Made by a program: the position numbers and the translations under genes. Source: an uncultured Coriobacteriia bacterium (GTDB taxonomy: Bacteria > Actinomycetota > Coriobacteriia > Anaerosomatales > PHET01). Taken from it: a stretch of DNA of 64,000 nucleotides. Of the stretch, positions 22,920 to 54,486 are shown piece by piece (the stretch's first letter is position 1; each line of letters starts with the position of its first letter). The notes beneath the pieces were generated by a model that saw nothing but the letters and a program-made list of their open reading frames with translations, searched no databases and was not told where the DNA came from. Location: NCBI GenBank assembly GCA_942493275.1, contig OW818687.1, forward strand, positions 176,743 through 240,742. Reading direction: 5' to 3'.

Positions 22920-23417
<498 letters not shown>

Positions 23418-25416: not shown

Positions 25417-25438
25417 CAACCCGTCTCAAGGAGCCATC

Positions 25439-26611: not shown

Positions 26612-26626
26612 GCGGCGAAACGCAGG

Positions 26627-35833: not shown

Positions 35834-36394
35834 TCGCCTCGGAAGGACCGCTCGTCTCCATATTGACGCCGTCTTTCAACCAGGCGACGTGGCTCGGCGA
35901 CAACCTGCGCTCGGTCGCCTGCCAGACATACCCTCACATCGAACACATCGTGATGGACGGCGGCTCGACCGACGGCAGCGTCGAGATTCTCGAGGCGGCA
36001 GACGGCATCACCTGGCGCAGCGAGGCCGACGACGGGCAGTCGGACGCGATCAACAAGGCGTTCGCGGTCTCCACAGGCGAGATCATCGGCTGGATCAACT
36101 CCGATGACGCCTACTTCGACTGCCGGGTCATCGAAGATGTGGTCGCGTTTTTCGAGCGCCACCCTGACGTCGACGTGGTCTACGGGCACGCCGCCCAGAT
36201 CGCCGAGGACGGAACGATCATCTGGATGATCTGGACTCCCCCGTTCTGGCGCCGCGTCCTGCGGATCACCAACTTCATCGGCCAGCCGGTCGCCTTCATC
36301 CGACGCCGCGTGCTCGACGATCCCATGCTCGACCGGAGCTTCCACTTCGCGATGGACTACGAGTTGTGGCTGAGACTCGATGCGAAGGGGGCCC
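34982..36394 (+). repeat. near-identical direct repeats from tandem GT2 duplication (34982-35352 vs 35848-36218; second block about 35429-35528 vs 36295-36394)
   Basis: Constant 866-bp offset; 14 mismatches in about 370 bp in the first block by manual count. Confidence 0.9.
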
Positions 36395-36726
36395 GGTTCA
36401 GGCGCATCAACCGCATCACCGCGGTCGACCGCCACCAGAAGGACCGCAAGTCGGTCACCATCGAGCACGTGATGCACGAGGACTATGACCGGCTCGCGGA
36501 CTCCCACGGCCGGGGCTACCCACGCGGCAAGCGCGTCCTCTCCCGAATCTTCTACGCGTGGCGCCGCGCCATGGGGGCCTTGCTCATCCCCGGAATCCCC
36601 GAGGAACTCGCGTTCACGCCCGTGCGCACGGGTCGAGGGGACCTGTTCAGGCGTCAGGCGCTGTCGTGGAACAAGGCGTGGCCGTACGACTACGTCGATA
36701 GCAGCGACGAGCCCGGAAAGGGCTAA
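35830..36726 (+). CDS. GT2 family glycosyltransferase (copy 2)
   Basis: Same motifs as copy 1; ATGA overlap with copy 1. Confidence 0.92.
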   Translation: MIASEGPLVSILTPSFNQATWLGDNLRSVACQTYPHIEHIVMDGGSTDGSVEILEAADGITWRSEADDGQSDAINKAFAVSTGEIIGWINSDDAYFDCRVIEDVVAFFERHPDVDVVYGHAAQIAEDGTIIWMIWTPPFWRRVLRITNFIGQPVAFIRRRVLDDPMLDRSFHFAMDYELWLRLDAKGARFRRINRITAVDRHQKDRKSVTIEHVMHEDYDRLADSHGRGYPRGKRVLSRIFYAWRRAMGALLIPGIPEELAFTPVRTGRGDLFRRQALSWNKAWPYDYVDSSDEPGKG

Positions 36727-38258
36727 CCGTCGCGCAGTACCCGCTTGCGCCTCCGCCACACGGCGACCGAAGTGATGAGGTCGGCACGCTCGTCCCGGCC
36801 AAGGCCGACGCCGGCGAACGCGAGCCAGTATGCCGCCGCCGAGACACCCGCGCCGATCAGGCACCCGATCAGCGATCCTGACAGCGGCGAGACGACGAGG
36901 GCGCCTGCGACGGCCGCCGGAACCAGCAGCAGCGGGTAGACCGGCAGCACGATCGAACGCAGCGCATCCGACCAGCTGAGTCCCGTTTCCTGCGCGAGGA
37001 ACCGCATGTGGAACGGGAAGTCCACGAGATGGGCCACCGACGTGCCGATGGCCACGCCCAGCACGCCGATCCGGGGGATCAGCAGCGCGCTCAGGCCCAC
37101 GTTGAGCACCGCCTGCATCACGATGTAGGGCACGCGGCGTCCGAGCCGCCCCTTGCTTATGACGATCGAATCCCCGACGAGCCCAAGCGCCATCAGGATG
37201 TGGGGGAAGATGAGTACCCGGGCCACGAGCGCCTGATCGGCGAACTCCTCCCCGAGCCACAGCACGATCACGGGCCCGACGAACACCATCGTCACGACCG
37301 TGATCGGTGCGATGAGGGCGGTCACGTACTTCGTGCCCCGCGTCAGCAGCGAACGCAGCGACGCCTCCCGCCCTTGTGCGCCCATGCTCGAGGCGAGCGG
37401 GAGAACGGCCGAGACCGACATGCCGGAGACGTAGGTGATCAGCGCGTTGAACTTCGACGCGGCCTCGTAGAGCGCAACGGCCGTCCCCCCCATGAACACG
37501 CCGAGCAACAGCCGATCGGTCTGCTGATAGAACAGCAGGTCGGAGAGCTGAACGACGAAGACCGCCCAGCTGAAGGTGAAGATCGAGCGCGCCGAGGCGC
37601 GACCCATGCCCTGGAACCGAACTGACGGGAGACCTGCGAGAATGCGCGAGGCGATCAGGTTCCCCGCCGAAACGACGACCATCACGACGCCGTTCAGCAC
37701 GACGAGCATGAGCGGTCCGGAGCCGGAGACGAGCACGTACCAGGTCGCGCCGATACTCAGCACCGTCGACGCGACACTCGAAGCTGCGAGAACGTCGTAG
37801 CGCTGCAACCCGCCGAGGATGTAGCGCGCCGCCGAAGACGGCCAGTACCACAACTGGAACAGTGCGCCGACCAGCAGCATGTCCTTGAGCAGCTCGGCGT
37901 CGGCAGCCGAGATGTCGAAGATGCGGCCCGCATAGACGCCTACGAGCGCCATGGCGATCGCCGCAACCACGCCGATTCCGGCATAGATAACCGTGGCGGT
38001 CGAAGCGGCCCCCACGAGGGCTGACCGGTCCTTCTTGGCGTGGTGCTCGGCCACGAGTGTCGTGAGTGCGGCGCCGATGCCCAGATCGAGCAGCACCGCG
38101 TAAGCCGACACGGAGGTTGCCAGCATGTAGATGCCGTAGTGCTCGAGCCCGAACGCCTCGATGAGCAGCGGCATGAACACGAGCGACGCAAGCATCGCAA
38201 CGACCTGAGACGAGCCGTTCGCGAGCGTGTTGAGTACGAGCCGCCGCTTCTCGTTCAT
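36723..38258 (-). CDS. wzx: Wzx-type oligosaccharide flippase (MOP family)
   Basis: About 14 TM helices; LGLEHYGIY, LDLGIGAAL, QTDRLLLG..G..AVALYEAA. Confidence 0.85.
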   Translation of the reverse strand: MNEKRRLVLNTLANGSSQVVAMLASLVFMPLLIEAFGLEHYGIYMLATSVSAYAVLLDLGIGAALTTLVAEHHAKKDRSALVGAASTATVIYAGIGVVAAIAMALVGVYAGRIFDISAADAELLKDMLLVGALFQLWYWPSSAARYILGGLQRYDVLAASSVASTVLSIGATWYVLVSGSGPLMLVVLNGVVMVVVSAGNLIASRILAGLPSVRFQGMGRASARSIFTFSWAVFVVQLSDLLFYQQTDRLLLGVFMGGTAVALYEAASKFNALITYVSGMSVSAVLPLASSMGAQGREASLRSLLTRGTKYVTALIAPITVVTMVFVGPVIVLWLGEEFADQALVARVLIFPHILMALGLVGDSIVISKGRLGRRVPYIVMQAVLNVGLSALLIPRIGVLGVAIGTSVAHLVDFPFHMRFLAQETGLSWSDALRSIVLPVYPLLLVPAAVAGALVVSPLSGSLIGCLIGAGVSAAAYWLAFAGVGLGRDERADLITSVAVWRRRKRVLRDG

Positions 38259-38297
38259 CGCGTCACGCGGCCCGCACGCGACATTCGACGACTGCGA

Positions 38298-40512
<2,215 letters not shown>

Positions 40513-40520
<8 letters not shown>

Positions 40521-41148
40521 CGCCGTGAAGCGTGTCATAGACGTGGCCATCTCCGCCGCGGCCCTGCTCCTGCTGAGCCCGGTGCTCGCGGGCATCGCGA
40601 TAGCCGTGCGCGTCAAGCTCGGTGCACCCGTGTTGTTCCAGCAGCCGCGCCCGGGGAGAAACGCCCGCATCTTCACGCTGTATAAGTTCCGCTCGATGCG
40701 TGATCTACCGGCGCACACCACGGCGGTCGACGCCGTGGCAACCGATGCCGAGCGGCTGACGCCTTTCGGCCGGAGACTTCGTTCCACCTCGCTCGACGAG
40801 CTGCCGTCGTTCGTCAACGTACTCAAGGGCGACATGAGCCTCGTCGGCCCACGCCCCCTGCTCCCCGAGTACGTTCCTCGGTACAATGAGGCGCAGGCGA
40901 GAAGGCACGAGGTCCGTCCGGGTATCACGGGATGGGCGCAGGTCAACGGCAGAAACGCCACCAGTTGGGAGGAGCGGTTCGAGATGGACGTGTGGTACGT
41001 CGATCACCGCTCGGTGTGGCTGGACCTGAAGATCGCCTACATGACGATAGCAACTGTCTTTGGCCGCTCGGGAGTCTCCGCGCCGGGTGAGGCCACCATG
41101 GCACCGTTCGACCCGGCAGCGCAGCGAAAGGACGACCACGCATCGTGA
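40513..41148 (+). CDS. initiating phosphoglycosyltransferase (PglC-like, monotopic)
   Basis: KRVIDV, LYKFRSM, LRSTSLDELP, GDMSLVGPRP, RPGITGWAQVNGRN, DVWYV. Confidence 0.92.
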
Positions 41149-41762
41149 AACGGCTACTCATCATCGGCTCGGGTGGTCACGCCAAGGTCGTCACCGCCGC
41201 AGCCGAAGCAGCGGGGTGGTCCATCGCCGGCATCGTCGATGCGACCACCGACCGCACCGAGCTGCTCGGACACCCGATCAGCGCTTCGTGCGACACCGCT
41301 GAAGCGGATGCGTTCATCATCGCGGTCGGAGACAACAGGACGCGTCGGGCCCGTTTCGAGGAGTGGAGCGGCTGTGGACTGGCTGCCGCCACCGTGATTC
41401 ACCCTTCCGCGATCGTGGCTAGCACAGCGTCGATCGGCGCGGGCACGTTCGTCTCGGCGGGCGTGATCGTCAACCCGGATGCGCGCATCGGTGACAACGT
41501 GATCCTCAACACCGGCTGCATCGTGGAACACGACTGCGTCGTCGCCGACCACGCCCACGTGGGCCCCGCCTCGAGCCTGTGCGGAAACGTGTCGGTGGGC
41601 AGCGGCGCGCTCCTCGGTACGGGCGTCAACGCGATTCCCGGTATCAGCATCGGCACGTGGAGCGTGTGCGGAGCCGGTGCCGCGGTGGTCAAGGACATTC
41701 CGGCCGACTGCGTGTGCGCCGGCGTGCCCGCGCGCATCGTACGTGCCGTCGAGGAGCTTTGA
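41145..41762 (+). CDS. sugar N-acetyltransferase (PglD/NeuD-like)
   Basis: IGSGGHAKVV, AVGDNRTR, hexapeptide repeats, EHDC..HV, AGVPAR. Confidence 0.9.
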   Translation: MKRLLIIGSGGHAKVVTAAAEAAGWSIAGIVDATTDRTELLGHPISASCDTAEADAFIIAVGDNRTRRARFEEWSGCGLAAATVIHPSAIVASTASIGAGTFVSAGVIVNPDARIGDNVILNTGCIVEHDCVVADHAHVGPASSLCGNVSVGSGALLGTGVNAIPGISIGTWSVCGAGAAVVKDIPADCVCAGVPARIVRAVEEL

Positions 41763-42985
41763 TGAGGTCGGGACTGTCGATCGACGGCGGCTCGCCGGTG
41801 CGAACCCTCCCCCTCCCCGGATGGCCATCCCCCGGCGACGCGGAGGCGGCGGCGGTCGAGTCGGTCGTGCGATCGGGCCGGCTCAACTACTGGGTCGGTG
41901 ACCAGGGACGCGATCTCGAGGCGTCGTACGCCGAGACACTCGGGCGTGCACACGCGATCGCCGTCGCGAACGGGACTCTGGCGCTCGAGCTCGCGCTTAG
42001 GGCCTTCCTGATCGGGCCCGGTGACGACGTCGTGGTCCCCGCGCGCACGTTCATCGCGACCGCCAGCGCGGTCGTGGCCGTGGGCGCCCGACCGGTGATC
42101 GCCGACATCGACCCGGACTCCGGCAACATGACGGCCACGACGCTCGAAGCCGCGCTTACCCCGGCGACGCGCGCCGTGATACCCGTGCATCTTGGCGGCT
42201 GGCCCGTCGACATGGAGCCGCTGCTCGCGATCGCCCGAAAGCACCGGCTGACGGTCATCGAGGATGCGGCACAGGCCCACGGGGGCCGATATCAGGGCCG
42301 TCCTGTGGGCGGGCTCGGCAGTCACGCGGCGGCGTTCTCCTTCTGCCAGGACAAGATCATCCCCGCGGGCGAAGGCGGCATCCTCGTGCTGGACGACGAC
42401 GATGCCTACCAGCGCGCGTGGGCGTACAAGGATCACGGCAAGTCGCTTGAGAAGGTGACGGCCATGGCTCAGGCGGGCGGCGGATCGACCTCCTACCAGT
42501 GGCTGGTCGACGGGTTTGGCACCAACTGGCGACTCAGCGAGTTGCCGGCCGCTCTCGTCCGTGTCGGACTCGAACGCCTGGACGAGTGGCACGGCGTGCG
42601 GACACGCAACGCCCTGAGCCTCGCCGAAGGCCTTGCCGATGTTCCGGGACTCACGATCCCGCTTCCGCCGGCAGGCACCGAGCACGCCTTCTACCGGCTG
42701 TACGGGCGAATCCGACTCGAGGAGCTGTCGAGCGGGTGGACGCGCGACCGGATCACCTCGGCCATCGGCGCCGAAGGCGTTCCCGTGCAGTACGGCACGT
42801 GCGCCGAGATCTACCGAGAGCGTGCGTTCCTCACAGCGGGACTCGGTCCCGAGACACGGTTGGCCGGCGCGTGCGCCGCTCACGAGAGTTCCATTGCGTT
42901 CTTCGTCCACCCCACGTTGTCGGAGTCAGACATCCAAGACACGGTCACCGCAACCCGCAAGGTGATGGAGGCAGCCACATCGTGA
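41762..42985 (+). CDS. DegT/DnrJ/EryC1/StrS sugar aminotransferase (PglE-like)
   Basis: ANGTLALELAL, PVHLGG, EDAAQAHG, SFCQDKII..GEGG, GTNWRL. Confidence 0.9.
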   Translation: MRSGLSIDGGSPVRTLPLPGWPSPGDAEAAAVESVVRSGRLNYWVGDQGRDLEASYAETLGRAHAIAVANGTLALELALRAFLIGPGDDVVVPARTFIATASAVVAVGARPVIADIDPDSGNMTATTLEAALTPATRAVIPVHLGGWPVDMEPLLAIARKHRLTVIEDAAQAHGGRYQGRPVGGLGSHAAAFSFCQDKIIPAGEGGILVLDDDDAYQRAWAYKDHGKSLEKVTAMAQAGGGSTSYQWLVDGFGTNWRLSELPAALVRVGLERLDEWHGVRTRNALSLAEGLADVPGLTIPLPPAGTEHAFYRLYGRIRLEELSSGWTRDRITSAIGAEGVPVQYGTCAEIYRERAFLTAGLGPETRLAGACAAHESSIAFFVHPTLSESDIQDTVTATRKVMEAATS

Positions 42986-44847
42986 CGCCTACAGAGATGT
43001 TCAGACGCGTTCGGGCCACCGGGCGGCTGTGGAACTCCGCGCTCGTGGTGCTTGATGCGGCGATCGTGGTCATGGCGACGGTCGCGGCCTACTACGCGCG
43101 CTTCGAAGGCGTCGTACCCGACGTGTTCGCCCAGTGGACCATGCCGCTGATGTGGCTCTCGGTGTTCCTCTACGGATCCTTGTTCGCGGCGTTCGGGCTT
43201 TACCGCCTGGTTCTGCGATTTGTCAGCATCGACACGCTCATTCGGCTCTTCGGCGCGACCATCATCGCCGTCTCGGTGCTTCTGGCGATCGATGTCCTAC
43301 TGCCGCAAGAAGCCGGGACGCGCGCCGTCCCGTTCGGCGTGCTGTTCATCCAGGCGGTGCTCGTGTTCCTTGGCGCCGCAGGTATCCGTGTTGCCGCCCG
43401 CATCCTCATCCACATCAGGGCGGCGCGGCCGATTGGACGGCGCGTGTTGATCGTCGGCGCGGGCAATGCCGGCTCCCTGCTTCTGCGTGAAATACAGAAC
43501 CGCCCTGACCTCAACCTGTCCGTGATCTGCTTCCTCGACGACGACCGGCGCCTTACCGGTCGGACCATCAACGGGGTACCGGTCCTGGGCACCACCGACA
43601 AGCTCGCCGAAACGGTAGCCAAGAAGGCGATCCAAGAGGTCATGGTCGCGCTTCCCTCGGCCTCCCAAGACGCCGTGAGAGCCATTCTGAACGCCGCAGC
43701 TGACGCAGACGTGCAGACACGCGTCATGCCCAAGATCGTGGTGGAGACGGGCTCTGTGAGCCTGCGCGACCTGAGGCCGGTCGACGTCGAGGACCTGCTC
43801 GGAAGAGATCCGGCTGCAATCGACATCGAGCAGGTGCGCGAAACGATCACCGGCAAGTCGGTTGCCGTCACCGGAGCGGCGGGCTCGATCGGCTCGGAAC
43901 TGTGCCGCCAGGTCATGCAGCTTGCACCCGCGCGCCTCATACTGATCGAGATCGACGAGAGCCGGCTCTACGAACTGTGGCTCGAGCTGTCACAGATCGA
44001 CCCGGACGTCCCGGTCATGTGCCTGTGCGACATCAGAGACCCGCGAACCTTGGACGCGGCCTTCGAACGCTACCGACCGGAGTTGGTTCTCCACGCCGCG
44101 GCCTATAAGCACGTGCCACTCATCGAGGTTGCCCCCGCCGAGGCGGTCAAGACCAACGTGATGGGAACTCTGCAACTCATGGAGGCATGTGAGAGACACG
44201 GCGTCGCCCGCTTCGTCCTCATATCGACGGACAAGGCGGTCGCGCCCGCCAATATGATGGGCCTGACCAAGTCACTCGCCGAGCGCATCATGCTGGCCGA
44301 GACGCGCGACAACGCACTGCACGCGGTCGCGGTCCGCTTCGGCAACGTCCTCGGAAGCCGCGGCTCCGTGGTGCCGATCTTCGAGGAGCAACTGCGCCAC
44401 GGCGGACCGGTGACCGTCACCGATCCGGAGGTCACGCGCTACTTCATGACGATTCCGGAGGCGGCACGGCTGGTTCTCCAGGCGCAGGCGATCGGTGCAC
44501 CTGGCGACATCTTCGTGCTCGAGATGGGCGAACCGGTGCGAATCGTGGACCTCGCTCGCAAGATGATCGCGCTGTCCGGCGTGCCCGCCGAGGTGCGTTT
44601 CACGGGGCTGAGACCCGGCGAGAAGCTGCACGAGCGCCTCATCACAGAGACCGAGTCGCTCCTCCCCACCCAGTGCGACCGCATCCTCCGAGTCGACCGC
44701 GTTCACGTCCTCGAGCCCGACTTCGATGAAGCCATCGACGCACTCGTGGATGCAGCGATCGTCCTCGACGAGGCGGCGTTGGCGGGTGCAGTGGATCGGC
44801 TCGAGCCCGGCTTCGCGGAGCGCGCCTCCCGAATGGCAGCCGGCTAG
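42982..44847 (+). CDS. membrane-bound UDP-GlcNAc 4,6-dehydratase (PglF/CapD/WbpM-like)
   Basis: Four N-terminal TMs; TGAAGSIGSEL, HAAAYKHVP, STDKAV, RFGNVLGSRGSV, VTRYFMTIPEA, LRPGEKLHE. Confidence 0.93.
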   Translation: MTPTEMFRRVRATGRLWNSALVVLDAAIVVMATVAAYYARFEGVVPDVFAQWTMPLMWLSVFLYGSLFAAFGLYRLVLRFVSIDTLIRLFGATIIAVSVLLAIDVLLPQEAGTRAVPFGVLFIQAVLVFLGAAGIRVAARILIHIRAARPIGRRVLIVGAGNAGSLLLREIQNRPDLNLSVICFLDDDRRLTGRTINGVPVLGTTDKLAETVAKKAIQEVMVALPSASQDAVRAILNAAADADVQTRVMPKIVVETGSVSLRDLRPVDVEDLLGRDPAAIDIEQVRETITGKSVAVTGAAGSIGSELCRQVMQLAPARLILIEIDESRLYELWLELSQIDPDVPVMCLCDIRDPRTLDAAFERYRPELVLHAAAYKHVPLIEVAPAEAVKTNVMGTLQLMEACERHGVARFVLISTDKAVAPANMMGLTKSLAERIMLAETRDNALHAVAVRFGNVLGSRGSVVPIFEEQLRHGGPVTVTDPEVTRYFMTIPEAARLVLQAQAIGAPGDIFVLEMGEPVRIVDLARKMIALSGVPAEVRFTGLRPGEKLHERLITETESLLPTQCDRILRVDRVHVLEPDFDEAIDALVDAAIVLDEAALAGAVDRLEPGFAERASRMAAG

Positions 44848-46679
44848 AAGGTCCCCGAGTCCCGAATCGCCTGCGCCTTCGCCTCGTACTCGGCGGCCTT
44901 CTCGGCGTTCCCTGCTTCACGCCAGTACGTGGCCTCGATGTCGATGGTTGCGATGGTCTCGCCAAGCTCGGCGGCCCTGTCGAGCATCTCGCGAGCACCT
45001 TCCTGGTCACCCTTTGCCAGGCGGTACTGAGCCAGAGCGGCCCACGCGTTGGGCGAGCCCGGTATCAGTTCGGCAGCCCGCGTGAAGGCTTCTTCCACCG
45101 CCTGCGGCTCAGCCTGATAGCCCGCCAGCGTGAGCGCGTACTCCATCGCGTACGCAGGGTTCGAAGGATCGAGTTCGACCGCCCTCTTCGCTGCGACGAG
45201 GTCCGGTTGATCCGCCGCGAGCGTGGGGTCCTCCTGCACCGCAAAGCCCCAGTCCAGCGACGAGCGCCAGTACAGGAACGGGTCAAAACCCCATGCGTCC
45301 GCAAGCGCCGTGGTCGTGCGAGCGTCGGCGAAGGTCGGCTCGTCCACCCGCGCGAGCACGAACCGGGTGAGACCGGACATGCCCAGGACCAGAGCGACAA
45401 GACTCGCGAACACCGTGACGGCAACCCGAGCGCCCCTGGAGCTGCCGACAGCCGACGCTTCCCCATGCGGTTTCGGCACCCGCAATGATGCGCCGAGCAC
45501 CAGTGCCGCAATCGGCAGGGACTGGAGCGCGGCGGGGGCGATGAGGCACAGAGCGCCATAGAGCACGATTCCCTGGACGAAGGGCTCGACGTCACCAAAG
45601 GAACCCGCCTTGGCCTGATGCACCCAGTTGCGCACGACCTCGAACGCAACCCAGCCGGCGAGGGCCAGTCCCACGACTCCGGTCGAGACCAGGATCCAGA
45701 CGAGCGCGTTGTGCGGGTCAGCGCTCACGCCTGCGAGCGCGTACGGCCCCCATATGTGATCGCCCGTGACGACCTGCCACGCCCCTGAAACGTAGCCGTC
45801 CGGTCCCCACCCCTGAACGGGTCGCATCAGGAATCCGAGCCAGCCGTCGTAGGCGAGCGTGTAACGTTCGGTCACGAACTCGGTAGCAGCCGTCCTCAGC
45901 GGGCTGAGCAGCAACCCGGCAAACGCTACGACCCACAGTCCTACGCCGAGGGCCACGGTGGTCAGCTTCGACCAGCCCGCGCGCAACAGCGCACGTGCCC
46001 CCTCGAAGGTGAGCCACAGGAGCAAGAAGGCCGTCGCTGCAAGTGCGTATCCACCGAGCAGGGCAACGAACACGGCCGCCACGAGCGTCGCGCGCCACAG
46101 CAGCGGGCGATCACGCAGGGACATCAGAGCAATCGGGAGCAGCAGGACCAGCACCTGCCCCAGGATGGTGGAGTTCGAAGTGGAGCCCGACACGTGAACG
46201 CGGGCAGAGAGCTCGTAGACCGCCGCAAGGACTTCGACGATGACGATGGCCAGGGCCGCCGTGCCCAGCAGCTTCCGACCCTGTGCACCCATCTCCACAC
46301 CCGAGATCACCACGAAACCAACCGCGGCCAGCGTCACCCAACCGATGTGACTGCCGTAGACACCGAAGAGCCCGCGCGCCAGCGACGGCGCGGTTACGGT
46401 ACCGATCACGGCCCACGCAAGCCATCCGGTCCACGCCCACATGAGCGGCCAGCGTACATAGGCGCCCAGTACGTCTTCGCGCGGCAGGAACACCAGACCC
46501 GTCGCAACAGCGGCTGCCAGCGCGATGACGGGCCAGTCGGTGGCTTGGCTCGCGCCGAACGGCACGAAGCCGACGAACAACGCCGCGGCGGCTATCGAGA
46601 CAAGAGCAATCGCGTATGGGCGATGCTGCTCCATCTCGACCCTGACCTTTGCTGCCTGCGCCTTCTTCTTAGCCACCAC
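44844..46679 (-). CDS. O-antigen ligase (Wzy_C) family protein with C-terminal TPR repeats; candidate O-oligosaccharyltransferase
   Basis: RPVQGWGPDGY...DPHNALV; TPR-like AVELDPSNPAY..AAELIPGSPNAW. Confidence 0.8.
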   Translation of the reverse strand: MVAKKKAQAAKVRVEMEQHRPYAIALVSIAAAALFVGFVPFGASQATDWPVIALAAAVATGLVFLPREDVLGAYVRWPLMWAWTGWLAWAVIGTVTAPSLARGLFGVYGSHIGWVTLAAVGFVVISGVEMGAQGRKLLGTAALAIVIVEVLAAVYELSARVHVSGSTSNSTILGQVLVLLLPIALMSLRDRPLLWRATLVAAVFVALLGGYALAATAFLLLWLTFEGARALLRAGWSKLTTVALGVGLWVVAFAGLLLSPLRTAATEFVTERYTLAYDGWLGFLMRPVQGWGPDGYVSGAWQVVTGDHIWGPYALAGVSADPHNALVWILVSTGVVGLALAGWVAFEVVRNWVHQAKAGSFGDVEPFVQGIVLYGALCLIAPAALQSLPIAALVLGASLRVPKPHGEASAVGSSRGARVAVTVFASLVALVLGMSGLTRFVLARVDEPTFADARTTTALADAWGFDPFLYWRSSLDWGFAVQEDPTLAADQPDLVAAKRAVELDPSNPAYAMEYALTLAGYQAEPQAVEEAFTRAAELIPGSPNAWAALAQYRLAKGDQEGAREMLDRAAELGETIATIDIEATYWREAGNAEKAAEYEAKAQAIRDSGTF

Positions 46680-46724
46680 TGCACCCTTCTACTGCGCGAA
46701 CCGACGACTCGGGCTCGGCGTGCG

Positions 46725-48749
46725 TCACTGCGCGGTCGCGCTCTCAACCAGGGAGCGAAGGTTCGCGACTCCCTGATCGCGGTCGGTGAACCGCTCCACC
46801 AGCAGGCCGGACACAACGGATGCGTCCTGCGTACGCCCCACTTCCAACAGCAACTCGCCGTAGAGAACGCCCGGGTACACCTGGGTGGGATCGATGTCCC
46901 ACCAGTCTTCGAGCGCGGTTATCGCCTCGGCGGTACGACCCGCGTTTGAGAGCGCAAGCGCGGCCTCGACGCGGGCAGCCAAGCCGGTCGGCGACGTCGT
47001 GTAGGCCGCAATCGCCAGATCGGCCGCTTCAGGCAGATACGACGGCCCTCCGACCAGCGCCGCCTTGTTCAGGAACGCGGCAAACGCCGTCTGCGCCTCA
47101 TATGACCGAGGGACGAAATCCAGGTATTCCCGATACGATGCGCGCGCAGCCTCGATTCCGGAAAGGTCGCCGGCCGACGCCATCGCCAAGGCGACTTCGG
47201 CCCGGGACTCGGCGAGCCGAGCCCGATAGCGCGTCTGCCACGGCGCAAGCGAGACTGCTGTCTCAGCATGCGACAGAGCCTCGGAGGGTCCCTGCGCCGC
47301 GTACGAACGAAGCAGCGCAGCATCGGCGGCCCACACTCTACCCGCAAAGACCAGCAGCCCGACGGCCGAGATGACGGCGATGCCCATCAATGAAGCGCGC
47401 AGCACCTTTGACAGCTCAACCGTGCGACACAGCGGAGCGCACACGACGCCCAGACCGACCCACAGCAGTGTGGAGCTTGCCACACTGGTGACACCCAGCA
47501 TCAGGAACGCGAGATAGGCAACGACGGCAGCCAGGAACGCCGCCGACGGCAGGCCCTCGGCGGATGTGGTCGCGCTCTTCGCGAACCAGCGCCATCCGCG
47601 CCACGCTACGTAGCCAAACCAGCCCACGAGCAGAATCGCCGCAGGGATGCCCAAGGTGGCAGCGAGGGTGAGCGGGTAGTTGTGCGCGTCCTGGGTGTAG
47701 GCGGCGAACCCTGAGGACGCAACGTCCTCCACGCTCCTGACCGGCCACCAACCTAGAAGGTAGGTGTCCGGACCCGTTCCGAGAATCGGACGCTGCGCGA
47801 TCATCGCCGCGGTGTCTTGCCAGATCAGAAGCCGCGAGTTGGACGCCGCCACGAACGCGTCCAGGCCGGCTACCCCGACCCGTCGGAGGGTGGCACCGCC
47901 AGTCGCGCTCACGCTCCACGCGAACGCAAGGGCGACCACCACCGCAGCGGCGATCCACACGATGCGGGCGCTCCCTCGCGGGACCTTCCCCGCCAACCGC
48001 GCCGAATAGGCCAGGAGCGCCAATCCGACGACCGCGGCGATCCAGGCGCCTCTGACGGCACTGACCGTGAGTGCGGCGAGTACCACCCCGGTGCAGACCC
48101 ACCACACCCACCGGCGCTCGATCTTCGTGTCGCTCAGCGCCAGTCCTCCCCCTGCGAGCAGCGGAAACAGCAGATATCCGCCCAGCATGTCGGGGTTGCC
48201 GATCGTCCCCAGCCCTCGCTCCAGCATCCACTCCGGCACCGCGGACCATGCCGCAGCATCGAGTCCCGCCGACTGCATCAGGCCGTAGATCGCCACAATC
48301 ACGCCGGGAATCGTAACGGCCATGAGCAGACGGCGGACCATACCCGTCGACCGCACCAGCTGAATCGTAGCCAGGAACAGGAGCAGCCACGCTGCCCATG
48401 ACACGAGCCCGCTGCGATACTCTTCACTGCCGAACAGCGCCGTGGGAACGTGGAGCCCGAAGATGGTCGACACGACGGCCAGCAACGCGAATGCGAGCAA
48501 CGGCCACGCGAGAGACTTCGGGAGCACTCTCGCCTTCGCAGGGCGAGACCACGCAAGGGCCGCGAGGACCAGCGCGGTGCCTGCGCACAGCACCGCAAGC
48601 TTGGGCGTCTGGAACACGTCGTAGGTGAGCAAGCCCCCTCCGAGGCTTGCCAGGTTAGTCATGGCCAACGGAACGATTGCGACCAGCGCCACCAGAATCC
48701 ATCCGGCAACGCTCGTCGCGCGCTCCTGATTCGCGAGCGGGCTCCCCAT
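46725..48749 (-). CDS. O-antigen ligase (Wzy_C) family protein with C-terminal TPR-like domain; candidate O-oligosaccharyltransferase
   Basis: GTIGNPDMLGGYL, RLLIWQDTAAMIAQRPILGTGPDTY, DAHNYPL; N-terminal YDVFQTPK; start at 48749. Confidence 0.85.
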   Translation of the reverse strand: MGSPLANQERATSVAGWILVALVAIVPLAMTNLASLGGGLLTYDVFQTPKLAVLCAGTALVLAALAWSRPAKARVLPKSLAWPLLAFALLAVVSTIFGLHVPTALFGSEEYRSGLVSWAAWLLLFLATIQLVRSTGMVRRLLMAVTIPGVIVAIYGLMQSAGLDAAAWSAVPEWMLERGLGTIGNPDMLGGYLLFPLLAGGGLALSDTKIERRWVWWVCTGVVLAALTVSAVRGAWIAAVVGLALLAYSARLAGKVPRGSARIVWIAAAVVVALAFAWSVSATGGATLRRVGVAGLDAFVAASNSRLLIWQDTAAMIAQRPILGTGPDTYLLGWWPVRSVEDVASSGFAAYTQDAHNYPLTLAATLGIPAAILLVGWFGYVAWRGWRWFAKSATTSAEGLPSAAFLAAVVAYLAFLMLGVTSVASSTLLWVGLGVVCAPLCRTVELSKVLRASLMGIAVISAVGLLVFAGRVWAADAALLRSYAAQGPSEALSHAETAVSLAPWQTRYRARLAESRAEVALAMASAGDLSGIEAARASYREYLDFVPRSYEAQTAFAAFLNKAALVGGPSYLPEAADLAIAAYTTSPTGLAARVEAALALSNAGRTAEAITALEDWWDIDPTQVYPGVLYGELLLEVGRTQDASVVSGLLVERFTDRDQGVANLRSLVESATAQ

Positions 48750-48786
48750 CAACGCATCCCCTTCATCCACCCGCCGAGAGAGCGCC

Positions 48787-49968
48787 TTACGGAAGGGCGC
48801 CCGGCGGCCGCGTGTCATGGCAGACCGTGCACCACGGCTGCTCCTTGTCGTACCTCAGCTTCTCGTGACACGCGCACGACGACGCGAAACTCCGGTTCAC
48901 ACCATGCCCCTGAATCCAGATAGTCGAGTGCGCGAGGAACGGCTCGTGACACTCCCCGCAGTCATTGTGGTCCTGGTAGTGACACTTGCCGCAACGCTTG
49001 CCCCCGTTTGACCACAGATCGACGGTCGCCTCTCGCGCGTGACCGGTCGCCTTGAACTGGTCTGAGTGAGGCAAACGAAGTCCGTGGCAGGAGTCGCACT
49101 CGCTCTGGTCCGAGTGACACCCATCGCACTTGGGATTCGAGACGAGGCGGGTGCCGCCGTTCTTTGGCTTCGCGCGGTCGGCTCTGACCGCGCCCGCCGG
49201 ATCGCCGATGTGGCACACGCTGCACTCGATCGACGCGATCTCGCCGTCATGACACCTCGTGCACGGCGCCATCCCGGCCACGTGGTCGGAGACCACGCCA
49301 CCATCAAGACGATGGCAGTCAATGCACTCGGCGCCAGCCTCAAGCGGCTCCTTGTGGGAGACTTTGAGTGAGCGATCCGTGACGGTCGCCGTACCGGTGA
49401 TCTGCTGCCGGTGACACGACGCGCACCCCTGCGAAGAGACCACGCCTGACAGGCCCTTGGTGTCACCCTGAAGCCCGGCGACGATGTGCACCGCCCGACC
49501 GGGGACGTCCGTGAAGATCCTGCCGATGTAGGTGCCGGTCTCATGACACGACACGCAGTCGGCCTTCTTGTGGGGATCTTTCTTGTCAGCCTGGACGTGC
49601 GCGGTGCGCACGTGACAACTGCTGCACAGCTCGTTAGTGGAGGACGCGACTCCGACCGCCACGTAGACGGCCATGAGCGCAAACACCCAAAAGGCGACCG
49701 AGTAGACCCAGCCGCGGGGATTGCGCGGTTCCGGCTCCTTTGCTGTCTCCTGGGGCACTGGAATGCTCTCAGCGGCCTCCCCGCCCTCCTCCGACTCTTC
49801 GCCGGAGCCCGTGAGCAGCAAGATGGCGGCGACCATGACGATCAGCAGCAGCAGGCTGGCGACCACCAGCAGCAGGATGGCAGCGGTCAGGTTGGTCGCG
49901 GGCTCCTGGATGATCTCGCGAAGCACGTTGGGCAGTGCAGCCCAGTCGTAGTTGAGGAGTGCCTCCAT
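48787..49968 (-). CDS. membrane-anchored multiheme cytochrome c, NapC/NirT-like N-terminus, 11 CxxCH plus one CxCH
   Basis: Two TM helices, then CSSCH, CVSCH, CASCH, CIDCH, CTRCH, CSVCH, CDGCH, CDSCH, CGKCH, CGECH, (CACH), CTVCH. Confidence 0.9.
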   Translation of the reverse strand: MEALLNYDWAALPNVLREIIQEPATNLTAAILLLVVASLLLLIVMVAAILLLTGSGEESEEGGEAAESIPVPQETAKEPEPRNPRGWVYSVAFWVFALMAVYVAVGVASSTNELCSSCHVRTAHVQADKKDPHKKADCVSCHETGTYIGRIFTDVPGRAVHIVAGLQGDTKGLSGVVSSQGCASCHRQQITGTATVTDRSLKVSHKEPLEAGAECIDCHRLDGGVVSDHVAGMAPCTRCHDGEIASIECSVCHIGDPAGAVRADRAKPKNGGTRLVSNPKCDGCHSDQSECDSCHGLRLPHSDQFKATGHAREATVDLWSNGGKRCGKCHYQDHNDCGECHEPFLAHSTIWIQGHGVNRSFASSCACHEKLRYDKEQPWCTVCHDTRPPGALP

Positions 49969-50942
49969 CAGGGCGTCACCTCCACGCCCTGTTCGATGGT
50001 GCTGTTGTTCATGGGGCCGGTGCCGCCGGGATGTGCATGGTACTCGTGGCAGTCCAGACAGTCCCGGATAGCATGGCATCGCAGGCACGCAGGATCCTGA
50101 TAGCCCTTGGTCTTCTGGGGGTGCTCGTCGATGAAGTCGCGCGGATGCGGAACCTCAACCTGATGACAGTCGCTGCAGAACTTCTTGGGGTGGCAGGATT
50201 CGCAGTCGGCATCAGCCTGCAACGAGACCGCGCCGTGCTGCGCAAGGAACTGCACGTCGTGCGGCACCCCAGCGCCGTGACAGCGGCTGCAGTAATCATC
50301 CGGGTGGCAACTCACGCACGTACGCGTGTCTCCCATGCCGTGCGCCTGCTCCCAGTTCTTCCCATGCGTGACGCGCCAGGCGCCTTGGGAGAGTCTGTCT
50401 TTGGTGAGCTTGCCGTTGTGGCACGTGTCGCATTCGACAGGCCCGTTGTTGTCTTCGTGACAGGCGATGCACGCCTGCATCTCGGGCTCTCGCGCCCAAG
50501 CAACCTCCGAGCCGTGCGCGGTCCCCGAATGACACTCCGTGCACTGGCCCACCGCCGCGCAGCTCTTGTGGTTGATCCGCAGCCCCGCTGTGTCAGTGGG
50601 CGCACTCATGACCTGCTCGTGACAGCTCAGGCATGCCTCACGAGGAACCGCCGATGAGAAGCGCCCGGACGTCTCTGTCACGCGAAGCCACATCGCGAAC
50701 ACCTGTTGCCCGGCGAATCGCGAACGGGCGGCGACGCCGGACTGGCCATGGCACGCCACACACTCGATTGAGGCGTGAGCTGAACCTTTGGTAGCCGCGA
50801 CAAAGGACTCCGACGAGTGGCAGGACTCACAGCCGGGTTGGGCCACGTACGCGGTTGCGTATACCGACGCGAAGGCGACAGCGACGACGAGGAACGTCGC
50901 GACCACAACGAACGCGATCAGGGCTGGTCTCTTGCTCTGCAC
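49968..50942 (-). CDS. membrane-anchored dodecaheme cytochrome c, NapC/NirT-like N-terminus
   Basis: One TM, then CESCH, CVACH, CLSCH, CTECH, CIACH, CDTCH, CVSCH, CSRCH, CESCH, CSDCH, CLRCH, CLDCH; GTG start after GAGAGG preferred over the ATG at 50987. Confidence 0.9.
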   Translation of the reverse strand: MQSKRPALIAFVVVATFLVVAVAFASVYATAYVAQPGCESCHSSESFVAATKGSAHASIECVACHGQSGVAARSRFAGQQVFAMWLRVTETSGRFSSAVPREACLSCHEQVMSAPTDTAGLRINHKSCAAVGQCTECHSGTAHGSEVAWAREPEMQACIACHEDNNGPVECDTCHNGKLTKDRLSQGAWRVTHGKNWEQAHGMGDTRTCVSCHPDDYCSRCHGAGVPHDVQFLAQHGAVSLQADADCESCHPKKFCSDCHQVEVPHPRDFIDEHPQKTKGYQDPACLRCHAIRDCLDCHEYHAHPGGTGPMNNSTIEQGVEVTP

Positions 50943-50980
50943 GGGGCCTCTCGGGGTCGGGTTAACGCTGCATTGCATCA

Positions 50981-50998
50981 ATGCCATATTCGTGCCAA
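50981..50998 (-). promoter_or_regulatory. sigma54-type -24/-12 promoter
   Basis: TTGGCACGAATATGGCAT = GG-N10-GC; one mismatch to TGGCACG-N4-TTGCW. Confidence 0.6.
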
Positions 50999-51054: not shown

Positions 51055-51093
51055 AAAAAAGGAATCGGGCCGGTCCCCTGAGGGACCGGCCCG
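51055..51093 (-). terminator. intrinsic terminator after the secreted cytochrome gene
   Basis: Perfect 12-bp stem CGGGCCGGTCCC-TCAG-GGGACCGGCCCG (51093-51066) followed after 5 nt by TTTTTT on the minus strand. Confidence 0.85.
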
Positions 51094-51127
51094 AAGACCG
51101 TCTTACGGCTAGCTCACGAAGAGTGAA

Positions 51128-52165
51128 CTAGTAGGACTGACCAACACCGGAACCGGTGCCGTCACGGTGGCACTTGAGGCAGACGCCATCAGACAGCGTC
51201 TTGCTCACAGCGTTGCCGTAGGTCAGCGGCACTGCAGGCTCGGCACCAACAGCGACCGTGGTCGACTGGGTGGTGTTCTCCGAGGACTGAGCGGAAGCGC
51301 CAGGCGTGGTCAGGGCTGCGCCAGCGTCGGCGGCAACCATGAGGAAGCGAGGAGCCTCGGGGGTGTAGTGCGGGAACGAGTAGCCGTCGCCGTCAACAGC
51401 CCAGCGCTCTTCAGCGTCGTGGCAGCTCTTGCACGTGGCGGACGACTTGAACGCGATCGGCAGACCGGTCTTGGTGGCACCGGAGCCGGCACCGTTCCAC
51501 GACGCGGTGTTGGCGCGCATCGGGTGAGTCTTGTTGGTGGCATAGCCAGCGCCACCAGCCGGCAGGCCGGCGATGTTGACACCAGTCGAGCTGGTGGCAA
51601 CGTAGTACGAGTTGTGGCAACCGCCACGGGCACAAGTCAGCGCAACGGCGTCATCGTAGCTCGCGGTAGCGGCAGTGTCGCCCTGGGCGATCGTGCCGGT
51701 GAAGGTGCCAGCGGTGTTCGGGAGCTTCAGGATCAGCGAAGCAGCGCCGACGCCGGTGAACGTGCCAGCACCGTGGACCGAGTGGCAGTTGCCACAGGTC
51801 GAGGTGTGGTGGGCGTTCGAGTCGAGCGTCAGGTAGGCGGGGTTCTCGCCATAGACCTGCGAGTACACGCTGGTCGCGCTCACGTGGCAGTAGTTGCACG
51901 AGTCGCTGACCGAGGTCTTGAGGAGGATCTCACCAGTGCTCGAGGCCTGGTGGACCGCGTGGCAAACAGCACACTTAACGGTGGTCGTGGTGTAGTTGCC
52001 GTGCGGCGAGGTATCCGTGCCGTTCAGTGCGGTGCTCCACGCGATGTAGGAGCCAGCGGTCGAACCGGCGTTGGTGACGAACGAGCCCTTGTCGGCGAAC
52101 GCCGGAGCGGCGATGGCCATGAGAGCGATCGCGGCGACAACCGCGATGAACAGCATCTTCTTCAT
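51128..52165 (-). CDS. secreted multiheme cytochrome c (5 CxxCH plus 1 CX4CH); OmcS-like filament candidate
   Basis: Sec signal MKKMLFIAVVAAIALMAIAAPAFA|D after AAGGAG; CAVCHAVH, CNYCH, CGNCHSVH, CARGGCH, CKSCH, CLKCH; no lipobox, TM anchor or LPxTG. Confidence 0.88.
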   Translation of the reverse strand: MKKMLFIAVVAAIALMAIAAPAFADKGSFVTNAGSTAGSYIAWSTALNGTDTSPHGNYTTTTVKCAVCHAVHQASSTGEILLKTSVSDSCNYCHVSATSVYSQVYGENPAYLTLDSNAHHTSTCGNCHSVHGAGTFTGVGAASLILKLPNTAGTFTGTIAQGDTAATASYDDAVALTCARGGCHNSYYVATSSTGVNIAGLPAGGAGYATNKTHPMRANTASWNGAGSGATKTGLPIAFKSSATCKSCHDAEERWAVDGDGYSFPHYTPEAPRFLMVAADAGAALTTPGASAQSSENTTQSTTVAVGAEPAVPLTYGNAVSKTLSDGVCLKCHRDGTGSGVGQSY

Positions 52166-53629: not shown

Positions 53630-54421
53630 CTACTCACTGACTCCCATCGTCTTCAGTCCCTCAAGTGCGGACTTCATATCGGGAACGAATTTGAGGGCGG
53701 CACGGAAATCCTCTTCCGCCTTCTTCTCATCACCCAGGGCCAGATACGCCTCGCCACGCGATGCGATGACATCGGCCGCGTTGGGCTTCTTCTCCAGGTA
53801 CTTGGTGTAGGCGTCTACCGCGTCCTGCCACTTCTTCTGCTCGGCGTAGATATTCGCCTTCAGCAGGTAGGCACCCTCGAGCGCAGGCGACTCAACCTGG
53901 GGATCGTTAAGGTCAGGTACTCGCTTCTTGTAGTCCGCGAGCTTGGCCTTGATCTCCTTGTCGGCTTCCTTGAGCGTCAGGTCCGCCTTCTTAAGCGCCT
54001 CCGCGTCATCGTCACGCGCGGCCGAAAGCCGAGCGTCGGCGAGAAGAATGAGAGCGCGGTCGGCGTTCGCGTTGCGAAGCCCGGCCTCAATCTGAACCTC
54101 AGCCTGAGCATACTGCTTCGTCTCGACCAAAATGCTGGCGTAGCGAGCCCACAACCTGCCGTCCTTGGGCGCCGCCTTGGTGGCGTCCGCCAGCAGATAG
54201 AGCTCCTTCTCAGCGTAGGTTCGGGGCGCCTCAGGAGACAGGAGGCCGAGAACCAGCGCTGACACTACCGTCGCAAGCCAGAGGGCGACGATCGCGAGGC
54301 ATGCGAAGATCAGCCTGCGGACGACCTTGTCGTCAAGTAGCCGAGGGCTTGCCTTCTCGGCCGGAGCCTGTGCTTCGGGCTCCCCCGTCGACGGGCTCGT
54401 CGGTGTTTCCAGATCGGACAT
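53630..54421 (-). CDS. membrane-anchored tetratricopeptide repeat protein
   Basis: N-terminal TM; TPR-like AVDAYTKYLEKKPNAADVIASRGEAYLALGDEKKAEEDFRAALKFVPD; start after GGAGGT. Confidence 0.85.
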   Translation of the reverse strand: MSDLETPTSPSTGEPEAQAPAEKASPRLLDDKVVRRLIFACLAIVALWLATVVSALVLGLLSPEAPRTYAEKELYLLADATKAAPKDGRLWARYASILVETKQYAQAEVQIEAGLRNANADRALILLADARLSAARDDDAEALKKADLTLKEADKEIKAKLADYKKRVPDLNDPQVESPALEGAYLLKANIYAEQKKWQDAVDAYTKYLEKKPNAADVIASRGEAYLALGDEKKAEEDFRAALKFVPDMKSALEGLKTMGVSE

Positions 54422-54469
54422 CTTACCTCCACGTGGGTGAACCACCGGTATCGGAATCGCTCGTATCCG

Positions 54470-54486
54470 AGCAATCGTCACGCCAA
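54470..54486 (-). promoter_or_regulatory. sigma54-type -24/-12 promoter
   Basis: TTGGCGTGACGATTGCT = GG-N10-GC with intact TTGCT, about 50 nt upstream of the TPR gene start. Confidence 0.62.

Follow-up and report, generated by a model that had tools for sequence, protein, structure and literature searches.

A stretch of 64,000 nucleotides from an uncultured Coriobacteriia bacterium (contig OW818687.1, positions 176,743 to 240,742 of the forward strand; hereafter the window, with a G+C content of 65%) holds a module for extracellular electron transfer (EET) together with a pathway for lipid-linked oligosaccharides, in a monoderm host. The two meet in a unit of four genes, in which two multiheme cytochromes, Cyt1 and Cyt2, are followed by two putative glycan transferases of the Wzy_C/TPR type, OT1 and OT2. 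The reading proposed here, on sequence evidence and at somewhat less than even confidence, is that these transferases O-glycosylate exported proteins with the product of the pathway, and that their acceptors include parts of the adjacent EET module, the secreted cytochrome Cyt3 being the prime candidate. OT1 and OT2 probably constitute a general envelope glycosylation system that was recruited beside the EET genes, and not one dedicated to cytochromes.

Organization of the four-gene unit

The row cytochrome–cytochrome–Wzy_C/TPR–Wzy_C/TPR, reported in a first-pass annotation of this DNA, stands as described there, head to tail on the minus strand (Table 1). The stop codon of Cyt1 and the start codon of Cyt2 overlap by 1 base (TGATG, the Cyt2 ATG being at 49968, with GGAGG 7 nt upstream of Cyt2). 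The stop of Cyt2 and the ATG of OT1 (48749) are separated by 37 nt, with GAAGGGG upstream of OT1, and OT1 and OT2 are separated by 45 nt, with GAAGGG upstream of OT2. The absence of terminators between these genes, also claimed in that annotation, was borne out by a consensus scan, which left the 37- and 45-nt gaps clear and gave weak matches only within coding sequence. The intrinsic terminator between Cyt3 and Cyt1 is strong, i.e. the 91-nt fold has a free energy of -48.2 kcal/mol (z = -5.5), and none of 200 shuffled sequences folded as stably. Given this terminator before Cyt1, and the short and clear gaps after it, the genes from Cyt1 to OT2 appear to form a single transcription unit with a separate start; gene order and signals thus point to their co-transcription.

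Two further features of the borders of the unit can be mentioned. The strong terminator directly after Cyt3 is of a kind characteristically met behind highly expressed genes for structural subunits, where some read-through reaches the accessory genes that follow. At the other border, OT2 and the gene for a PglF-like dehydratase are convergent, and their stop codons overlap in the palindrome CTAG at 44844-44847, leaving no intergenic space and no terminator, so that both transcription units must run into each other. No RNA family was matched in an Rfam scan of the window.

OT1 and OT2 as Wzy_C/TPR transferases

Membership of the Wzy_C superfamily (PF04932) is direct for OT1, which matches the Pfam model with 58.3 bits (cut-off 31.7; E = 1e-15), and a profile of the OT1 family finds TPR proteins (1e-43) as well as the structure of WaaL, 7TPG (5e-10). 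For OT2 it comes through the family. OT2 itself gave no Pfam Wzy_C match at E < 0.01; its database homologs carry PF04932 and TPR, its family aligns with the OT1 family over 532 columns (hhalign; 99.9% probability, E = 3e-31), and the OT2 family profile matches TPR structures at 8e-15. It is on these grounds, all of them indirect, that OT2 is taken as a Wzy_C/TPR protein. Weak Pfam TPR matches are present in both OT1 and OT2. When single sequences of the two membrane domains were compared with the PDB by phmmer no match was found, WaaL being reached only by the family profile, and the best NCBIfam match of OT1 was to the IctB family, at 36 bits against a cut-off of 366.

The hallmark of ligases and oligosaccharyltransferases (OTases) of this superfamily, which we take from the WaaL and PglL literature, is a large extracytoplasmic loop with conserved Arg and His residues and an H-x10-G motif. 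Conserved loop Arg and His residues are present in both families. The residues invariant in the OT1 family (alignment of 43 sequences) are G184-N-P-D187, R233, R290, R306, G324/G326/D328, and H356; those invariant in the OT2 family are R272, D321-P322-H323, G334, and G337, and OT2 itself has the motif HN-x9-G-xx-G. A model of OT1 with 13 transmembrane segments obeys the positive-inside rule, with 16 Lys and Arg residues in seven inside loops and 2 in five short outside loops, and predicts that the loop with the conserved Arg and His residues, as well as the TPR domain at the C-terminus, is outside the membrane. The single-sequence AlphaFold2 (AF2) model of OT1 is poor (predicted local distance difference test, pLDDT, 49.1), the TPR part alone exceeding 70.

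The architecture of OT1 and OT2 favours a protein acceptor. The first-pass annotation had gone further, identifying them as protein O-OTases of the S-layer WsaB/WsfB type from the occurrence of Wzy_C proteins with C-terminal TPRs in a monoderm. The presence of a Wzy_C protein in a monoderm alone does not mean that it is a protein OTase; here that assignment gains from the Wzy_C/TPR architecture, from the prediction that the TPR domain faces outward, and from the adjoining PglF/E/D/C-like pathway and flippase, while polymerase and ligase roles stay in contention. The precedent likewise applies in part, in that WsfB, as PglL, has Wzy_C with a C-terminal TPR domain, whereas WsaB is without TPR and has a separate TPR protein, WsaA, beside it (PMC2943079).

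A putative bacillosamine-type pathway beside OT2

Genes for PglF-, PglE-, PglD-, and PglC-like enzymes, a complete set that indicates a bacillosamine-type pathway, are contiguous on one strand and converge on OT2 (Table 1). The identity of the sugar is suggested at family level. At least six further glycosyltransferases adjoin the Pgl-like set and the Wzx-type flippase. The GT4 and PglC-like proteins are encoded in the window by separate overlapping frames (39378-41148), and as one fused protein of 604 residues at 16184-17998 in the closest syntenic locus among the relatives, L026 (labels of this form denote individual loci); the separate frames in the window could be a true split or a frameshift. 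The island also encodes a membrane protein of 551 residues, which may be an unclassified GT-C-like transferase.

Table 1. Features of the window, with the four-gene unit first (coordinates within the window)
Feature	Position	Strand	Basis and remarks
OT1, Wzy_C-superfamily membrane glycan transferase, 674 residues, C-terminal TPR	46725..48749	-	Pfam Wzy_C
OT2, divergent full-length paralog of OT1, 611 residues, Wzy_C core and TPR	44844..46679	-	Homologs and profile-profile alignment
Cyt1, membrane-anchored 12-heme cytochrome (12 CxxCH), 339 residues	49968..50987	-	NrfH/NapC-like module and Hmc-like domain
Cyt2, cytochrome with 11 CxxCH and one CxCH (SCACH)	48787..49968	-	Two N-terminal hydrophobic segments, acidic linker between them
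Intrinsic terminator hairpin, then UUCCUUUUUU	51065..51094	-	Between Cyt3 and Cyt1; 13-bp stem with 11 GC pairs, U-run
Cyt3, secreted multiheme cytochrome, 5 CxxCH and one Cx4CH (CARGGCH)	51128..52165	-	Signal peptide ends AFA|D; GGAG 7 nt before ATG at 52165
NHL-repeat beta-propeller protein, 427 residues	52346..53629	-	Pfam NHL 6.6e-17; N- and C-terminal hydrophobic segments (24-61, 372-403)
Membrane-anchored TPR protein, 283 residues, first gene of the upstream unit TPR-NHL-Cyt3	53630..54481	-	Pfam TPR_1/TPR_2/TPR_19; one hydrophobic segment at about residues 51-85
PglF-like membrane UDP-GlcNAc 4,6-dehydratase	42994..44847	+	Polysacc_synt_2 354 bits and CoA_binding_3; start at 42994 inferred from domain begin
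PglE-like sugar aminotransferase	41579..42985	+	DegT_DnrJ_EryC1 283 bits; true start probably near 41760
PglD-like sugar N-acetyltransferase	41145..41762	+	PglD_N and Hexapep; TIGR03570 (NeuD/PglB/VioB) 203.9 bits, cut-off 160.8
PglC-like small polyprenyl-phosphate sugar-phosphate transferase (initiating)	40441..41148	+	Bac_transf 217 bits
GT4 glycosyltransferase	39378..40520	+	Pfam
Wzx-type flippase	36723-38258	-	Polysacc_synt/MatE; divergent from GT4-Pgl genes
NAD-dependent sugar epimerase/dehydratase	38298 to about 39215 (block 36723..39740)	-	Pfam Epimerase; divergent from GT4-Pgl genes
Rest of glycan island, enzymes	19435..36726		Two GDP-mannose dehydratase-family proteins, ManC, three GT4, two GT2, methyltransferase, polysaccharide deacetylase
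Rest of glycan island, others	19435..36726		Radical SAM, LPG_synthase_TM, UbiA prenyltransferase, and DUF362 genes (at 23496-26611 and 33862-35067); 551-residue membrane protein
Polytopic membrane protein, 551 residues, C-terminal soluble domain	26627-28282	-	No Pfam match even at E = 0.05
Third Wzy_C protein, 612 residues, no TPR detected	13798..15636	-	Pfam Wzy_C 1.2e-17; adjoins leuA2/ilvE/leuB
leuC	54605
leuD	22920-23435		Within glycan island
ilvBNC	60-63.6 kb
leuB, ilvE, leuA2	19.4-15.6 kb
his operon and dnaE	Left end of window

Candidate acceptors in the EET module

Cyt1 has a single N-terminal transmembrane segment, in keeping with the quinol dehydrogenases of the NapC/NirT/NrfH type, in which such a helix is followed by a tetraheme module. 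A profile of its family (A4) matches NrfH (2J7A) at 7.5e-10 over the N-terminal positions 21-168, with the C-terminal part matching Hmc (1H29) at 3e-10; Cyt1 is not an NrfH equivalog, scoring 27 bits with TIGR03153 against a cut-off of 134. With regard to the electron donor of the NrfH-like Cyt1, no respiratory quinones could be detected in the cultured Anaerosomatales (PMC9686372). The linker between the two N-terminal hydrophobic segments of Cyt2 is very acidic in the window and in orthologs (e.g. in L008 and L069), an arrangement whose topology does not fit easily with a heme domain on the outside. Cyt1 and Cyt2 are membrane entry points of an electron-transfer chain and are not extracellular. 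Ser/Thr/Pro/Ala-rich regions resembling glycan acceptors were sought in the Cyt1 family, and none were found except for short tails in a few members.

Outside the four-gene unit, Cyt3 is, judged from its sequence, the most plausible target of O-glycosylation, being likelier than Cyt1 or Cyt2 because it is secreted, rich in Ser and Thr, and, probably, distantly OmcE/OmcS-like. Mature Cyt3 is 24% Ser and Thr and 11% charged residues, and it has the highest Ser/Thr content among 51 proteins of the window, itself included (z = 4.2). Its Ser/Thr/Ala-rich insert (TTPGASAQSSENTTQSTT) is absent from all 21 of the other aligned family members. A profile of the Cyt3 family (A2, 22 members) matched three PDB entries below 1e-3, i.e. 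the OmcE filament 7TFS (1.2e-6), the OmcS filament 6EF8 (3.6e-5), and 9YUQ, a 16-chain multiheme entry that is filament-like (1e-4); no other PDB cytochrome was matched below 0.01. Cyt3 is, on this comparison, probably OmcS/OmcE-like. The single-sequence AF2 model of Cyt3 has a pLDDT of 29.9.

Gene order in related loci

A search with OT1, for which a 697-residue open reading frame was the query, gave 63 genome loci encoding OT1 relatives, 43 of which have at least 6 kb of downstream sequence. A Bac_transf phosphoglycosyltransferase (PGT) gene lies directly upstream of the OT1 homolog in 49 of the 63. Multiheme cytochrome (MHC) genes, counted if they encode at least four CxxCH motifs, were present within 10 kb downstream in 32 of the 43 related loci, always on the same strand, while about 9% would be expected by chance from 17-18 such genes over a 2-Mb genome (gene count from PMC9686372).

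The commonest order, exemplified by L002, is GT4-PGT-Wzy_C/TPR-Rex-TPR-NHL-14-heme-11-heme-ResB-CcsA, and many other loci add a 7-heme gene of the Cyt3 family directly after the NHL gene. NHL homologs are present in 32 of the 63 loci, and in relatives such as L002 the NHL gene comes after a TPR gene, as in the window. On the glycan side, the typical relative locus has only GT4 genes, a phosphoglycosyltransferase gene, and one Wzy_C/TPR gene. In L002, a gene for the redox-sensing repressor Rex (12075-12710) lies between the Wzy_C/TPR gene and the TPR-NHL-cytochrome genes, and ResB/CcsA maturation genes (17832-20017) come after them; neither is found in this region of the window.

Several other orders occur. 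A cytochrome gene lies between the phosphoglycosyltransferase gene and OT1 in L023 and L048 (PGT-MHC-OT1), OT1 precedes a cytochrome gene with a 34-nt gap in L042 (OT1-MHC), and two cytochrome genes precede a Wzy_C gene in the window, L026, and L065 (MHC-MHC-Wzy_C). A metagenome contig (L071, 1298-7227) has an OT1-like gene flanked on the same strand by 21-heme and 9-heme genes (MHC-OT1-MHC), one more form in which Wzy_C and cytochrome genes are linked independently. The Wzy_C subfamily that follows the cytochromes varies, being OT1 and OT2 in the window, an unrelated Wzy_C protein of 601 residues and OT1 in L026, and OT2 in L065. Adjacency to cytochrome genes, as would be expected of OTase genes lying beside those of their acceptors, thus recurs; adjacency to leu/ilv genes recurs also, and in L069 the link is absent. 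By this comparison the OT1 cassette is a general feature of these Actinomycetota, often but not obligatorily linked to the cytochrome module, which argues against transferases dedicated to it.

The whole block is hosted by an ilv/leu supercluster, which occupies 15633-23435 and 54605-63658 (Table 1), and leuC and leuD are split by about 31 kb of cytochrome genes and glycan island. In relatives, Wzy_C paralogs are repeatedly interleaved, at short spacing, with leuB/ilvE/leuA2 or ilvD/ilvB (L005, L029, L052, L064, L065, and L067-L070). The third Wzy_C protein of the window clusters with neither OT1 nor OT2 and is a candidate polymerase or further ligase.

Evidence against the proposal and alternative functions

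A number of observations weigh against the proposal that OT1 and OT2 glycosylate parts of the EET module. With respect to the transferases, Pfam Wzy_C includes polymerases and non-protein ligases as well as protein OTases. Curated O-OTase models gave 16 bits for OT2 with TfpM (cut-off 600), and no match for OT1. The H-x10-G loop motif is carried by all three Wzy_C proteins of the window, and was for this reason rejected as a means of separating OTases from polymerases; it confirms the family and cannot assign a role. With respect to the acceptors, the cytochromes of the unit, which the first-pass annotation had taken to be extracellular, are membrane-anchored by hydrophobic segments, and there is no clear low-complexity region resembling an acceptor in Cyt1 or Cyt2. 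All six heme motifs of OmcS align in order with the Cyt3 profile, but with a large composition-bias correction, while the match to OmcE is not collinear and the similarity is modest. The terminator at 51094-51065 stands, moreover, between Cyt3 and the OT genes.

The linkage itself is also open to challenge. The counts of cytochrome genes near OT1 come from phylogenetically related loci and are not independent of one another. In the Thermoleophilia loci, the order GT4-PGT-OT1 leads on to ilvD/ilvB, and the 10 kb examined hold no cytochrome gene, and genes of the OT2 type are mostly located between leuB and ilvE (L067, L069, and L070). A close relative, L069, whose LeuB is 85% identical to that of the window, has NHL-Cyt3-Cyt1-Cyt2 followed by leuD, without a Wzy_C gene. 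Wzy_C genes are as tightly spaced against leu genes as against cytochrome genes; since the leu genes are functionally unrelated, close spacing says little about shared function where genomes are as compact as these. The occurrence in the window of a third Wzy_C gene speaks, as do the Thermoleophilia loci, the OT2-type genes among leu genes, and L069, against the proposal of the first-pass annotation that the transferases are dedicated to the cytochromes, a term that has been given up here.

It may be, though it appears somewhat unlikely, that the locus is machinery for an envelope glycopolymer, the Wzy_C proteins polymerizing Wzx-flipped units or ligating them to a non-protein acceptor, e.g. 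a glycolipid anchor or a wall polymer. The product would then be a polysaccharide matrix through the thick wall, in which cytochromes are embedded or anchored without themselves being glycosylated; the Geobacter exopolysaccharide Xap is reportedly needed for anchoring c-type cytochromes. The Wzx-type pathway of the window is full, and its many glycosyltransferases, with a methyltransferase and a deacetylase besides, exceed what a short protein glycan would need, but the typical relative loci hold just GT4 genes, a phosphoglycosyltransferase gene, and one Wzy_C/TPR gene. Three Wzy_C paralogs are to be expected if polymerase and ligase roles are split between them; however, a chain-length regulator (Wzz/PCP), the usual companion of a Wzy polymerase, and an LCP-type wall ligase were both missing from the window and from what is annotated of L002 and L026. 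The superfamily spans polymerases and ligases, and 7TPG, the solved structure that OT1 matches best, is annotated as a 'cell surface polysaccharide polymerase/ligase', whereas the invariant loop His of OT1 and OT2 is typical of ligases and OTases. That the OT1 cassette is kept in lineages without nearby cytochromes fits glycopolymer synthesis, while C-terminal TPR domains that face outward have been described in protein OTases (PMC2943079; bioRxiv 10.1101/2020.04.19.049825).

An unlikely explanation is that the four-gene unit is a historical neighbourhood without specific meaning for the cytochromes, OT1 and OT2 belonging to a system, either for envelope housekeeping or for glycosylation in general, that is based in the ilv/leu region of these genomes, and the cytochrome cluster and the glycan island having come into one variable region. 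The separation of leuC from leuD by the island is consistent with such a history, as are the interleaving of Wzy_C genes, at equally short gaps, with leuB/ilvE/leuA2 (L064, with several such paralogs, L065, and L067-L070) or with ilvD/ilvB (Thermoleophilia), the lack of a Wzy_C gene after Cyt2 in L069, and the differing Wzy_C partners in the window, L026, and L065. Chance proximity is less readily reconciled with cytochrome genes that lie on the same strand and within 10 kb of downstream sequence in 32 of the 43 loci, with a link that persists through five or more gene orders, or with cytochrome genes wedged between the phosphoglycosyltransferase gene and OT1 (L023 and L048) and placed on both sides of an OT1-like gene (L071). 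The Desulfuromonadia, furthermore, offer an independent case of a cytochrome-filament cluster paired with a glycosylation cluster, and there the filament does carry glycan (bioRxiv 10.1101/2025.10.22.684050).

The assignment of the host as a monoderm, made in the first-pass annotation, is upheld. DnaE of the window is 73-79% identical to proteins of Coriobacteriia/Anaerosomatales metagenome-assembled genomes (MAGs). The MAGs with OT1 relatives are mostly labelled Actinomycetota (Coriobacteriia, Thermoleophilia, and Actinomycetes), the remainder being about a dozen 'uncultured Eubacteriales' and one 'uncultured bacterium', and no label names a diderm group. The 64-kb window showed neither an lpx gene nor a gene for outer-membrane biogenesis, and lipid A is not known from Actinomycetota. 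Two cultured Anaerosomatales have a Gram-positive wall ultrastructure, and 17-18 multiheme cytochrome genes (PMC9686372). This placement and these walls make a lipid A-core acceptor very unlikely. It is thus extremely improbable that OT1 and OT2 are WaaL-type O-antigen ligases attaching glycan to lipid A-core in a diderm host, a function rejected on the taxonomy of DnaE and of the relatives' MAGs, together with the walls of cultured relatives (PMC9686372), and the lack of lpx genes in the window, although they belong to the Wzy_C family and their profile reaches the structure of WaaL, 7TPG.

Comparison with known systems

Candidate O-OTase genes often adjoin the genes of their substrates (PMC3643930). 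The closest monoderm parallels are the S-layer O-OTases WsfB of Paenibacillus alvei and WsaB/WsaA of Geobacillus stearothermophilus, to which OT1 and OT2 are likened by the architecture described above. As in the window, these systems have a Wzy_C core and Bac_transf-type initiation of a lipid-linked glycan, and their genes lie in a glycosylation cluster near that of the acceptor. By contrast, the acceptor of WsfB and WsaB is an S-layer protein and the host a firmicute, while the neighbours in the window are cytochrome and NHL genes, the paralogs are in tandem with a third elsewhere, and the host is an actinobacterium.

The Neisseria pgl system (PglL/PglO, with a diNAcBac-based glycan) also resembles the window, in combining a Wzy_C/TPR OTase with a dehydratase/aminotransferase/acetyltransferase/phosphoglycosyltransferase set and a flippase; it differs in being a general system of a diderm, without linkage to a cytochrome operon. 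In Pseudomonas aeruginosa the gene of the OTase TfpW (and that of TfpO/PilO) comes immediately downstream of the gene for the pilin that it modifies, pilA in the case of tfpW. TfpW is polytopic, as OT1 and OT2 appear to be, and has its C-terminal TPR domain in the periplasm (bioRxiv 10.1101/2020.04.19.049825). However, TfpW has been modelled on ArnT, and is of another family than Wzy_C, and in the window it is the membrane cytochromes that are directly upstream, the filament-like candidate Cyt3 lying one terminator further.

With respect to cytochromes, the OmcE and OmcS filaments of Geobacter have surface glycosylation in cryo-EM maps, whereas OmcZ has none (PMC9473688). Every OmcE cluster is reported to hold a beta-barrel and two beta-propeller lipoproteins besides the subunit and a further pair of multiheme cytochromes. 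In Geobacter and Geomonas, 15-70 genes follow, which encode GT2, GT4, and GT39 proteins, exporters, methyltransferases, enzymes of sugar modification, and TPR proteins; where a species is without this glycosylation extension, its OmcE is unglycosylated (bioRxiv 10.1101/2025.10.22.684050). The transferase acting on the Geobacter filaments is not named in either of these studies (PMC9473688; bioRxiv 10.1101/2025.10.22.684050). The likeness to the window extends to two further multiheme cytochromes, beta-propeller(s), a small secreted cytochrome, and TPR proteins, as well as to many GT2/GT4, sugar-modifying, methyltransferase, and exporter genes beside them, such that the window looks like a monoderm parallel of the OmcE-cluster layout, minus the barrel. 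The differences are that the Geobacter clusters encode an outer-membrane beta-barrel, while in the window, from a monoderm, there is no barrel and the NHL propeller has transmembrane anchors, and that the sequence similarity is weak (E = 1e-6 to 4e-5). OmcE homologs have been listed from five phyla, Actinomycetota not being among them (bioRxiv 10.1101/2025.10.22.684050).

Within the Anaerosomatales, the Rex/cytochrome/maturation cluster of Parvivirga hydrogeniphila (MCL4079323-32) corresponds to the typical relative locus (Rex-TPR-NHL-MHCs-ResB-CcsA, e.g. L002); the window differs from it in lacking Rex and ccs genes, and in gene order. The Rex/cytochrome/ccs cluster has been proposed as a candidate determinant of Fe(III) reduction (PMC9686372). 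The main text of that study is without the string 'glycos', and thus does not deal with any glycosyltransferase or Wzy_C gene beside the cluster. In the literature searched there was no paper naming both OmcS and Coriobacteriia, and no report joining O-antigen ligase with multiheme, or multiheme with NHL in Actinobacteria. The accounts consulted of Anaerosomatales cytochrome clusters and of nanowire clusters do not mention a link between Wzy_C and cytochrome genes. The kinds of system involved, i.e. an O-OTase gene beside that of its substrate, and a cytochrome-filament cluster with a glycosylation cluster, are known; here they would occur in a phylum and an envelope type in which neither has been described.

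Proposed route and significance

We infer that the acceptors of OT1 and OT2 are proteins, and that cytochromes are among them. In the proposed route, the PglF/E/D-like enzymes would make a nucleotide-linked 2,4-diamino-2,4,6-trideoxyhexose (bacillosamine-type) sugar, which the PglC-like transferase would load onto polyprenyl phosphate. The GT4 and GT2 enzymes would lengthen the glycan, Wzx would flip it to the outer face of the membrane, and OT1 and OT2 would transfer it en bloc to Ser/Thr residues of exported proteins, making use of the conserved loop His and Arg residues, with the external TPR domain holding the acceptor. Acceptors would be wall-exposed parts of the EET module, Cyt3 first, and possibly the NHL propeller and Cyt1/Cyt2. 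The NrfH-like Cyt1, with Cyt2, would take up electrons at the membrane and pass them outward.

A bolder form of this proposal is that Cyt3 is an OmcS/OmcE-like hexaheme subunit, O-glycosylated by OT1 and OT2 with a bacillosamine-initiated glycan, assembled through the wall with the help of the NHL and TPR proteins, and fed by Cyt1 and Cyt2, i.e. a Gram-positive counterpart of the glycosylated cytochrome nanowire of Geobacter. This appears decidedly unlikely as matters stand. A Fe(III)-respiring Anaerosomatales strain, Parvivirga, forms pili-like appendages only with ferrihydrite (PMC9686372), and a nanowire of this type, were it real, might explain them; it would also provide the first naming of transferases that glycosylate an electron-conducting cytochrome filament.

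The passage of electrons through the thick wall of Gram-positive bacteria to minerals is poorly understood, as is the role of the glycans on Geobacter OmcE and OmcS. The gene set described here is compact and testable. In it, an electron-transfer module is joined by two candidate transferases and by a defined pathway for a lipid-linked glycan, within a cosmopolitan subsurface lineage of Coriobacteriia (OPB41/Anaerosomatales) and its relatives. Should the cytochromes prove not to be modified, the recurrent cassette of Wzy_C/TPR and phosphoglycosyltransferase genes would still represent an uncharacterised and widely conserved envelope system of Actinomycetota. If they are modified, OT1 and OT2 would be the first enzymes assigned to the glycosylation of cytochromes, and would offer tools for the glyco-engineering of conductive proteins. 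Biology of the cytochrome-filament type would then reach beyond the five phyla reported so far for OmcE homologs, all of which are, as far as is known, diderm.

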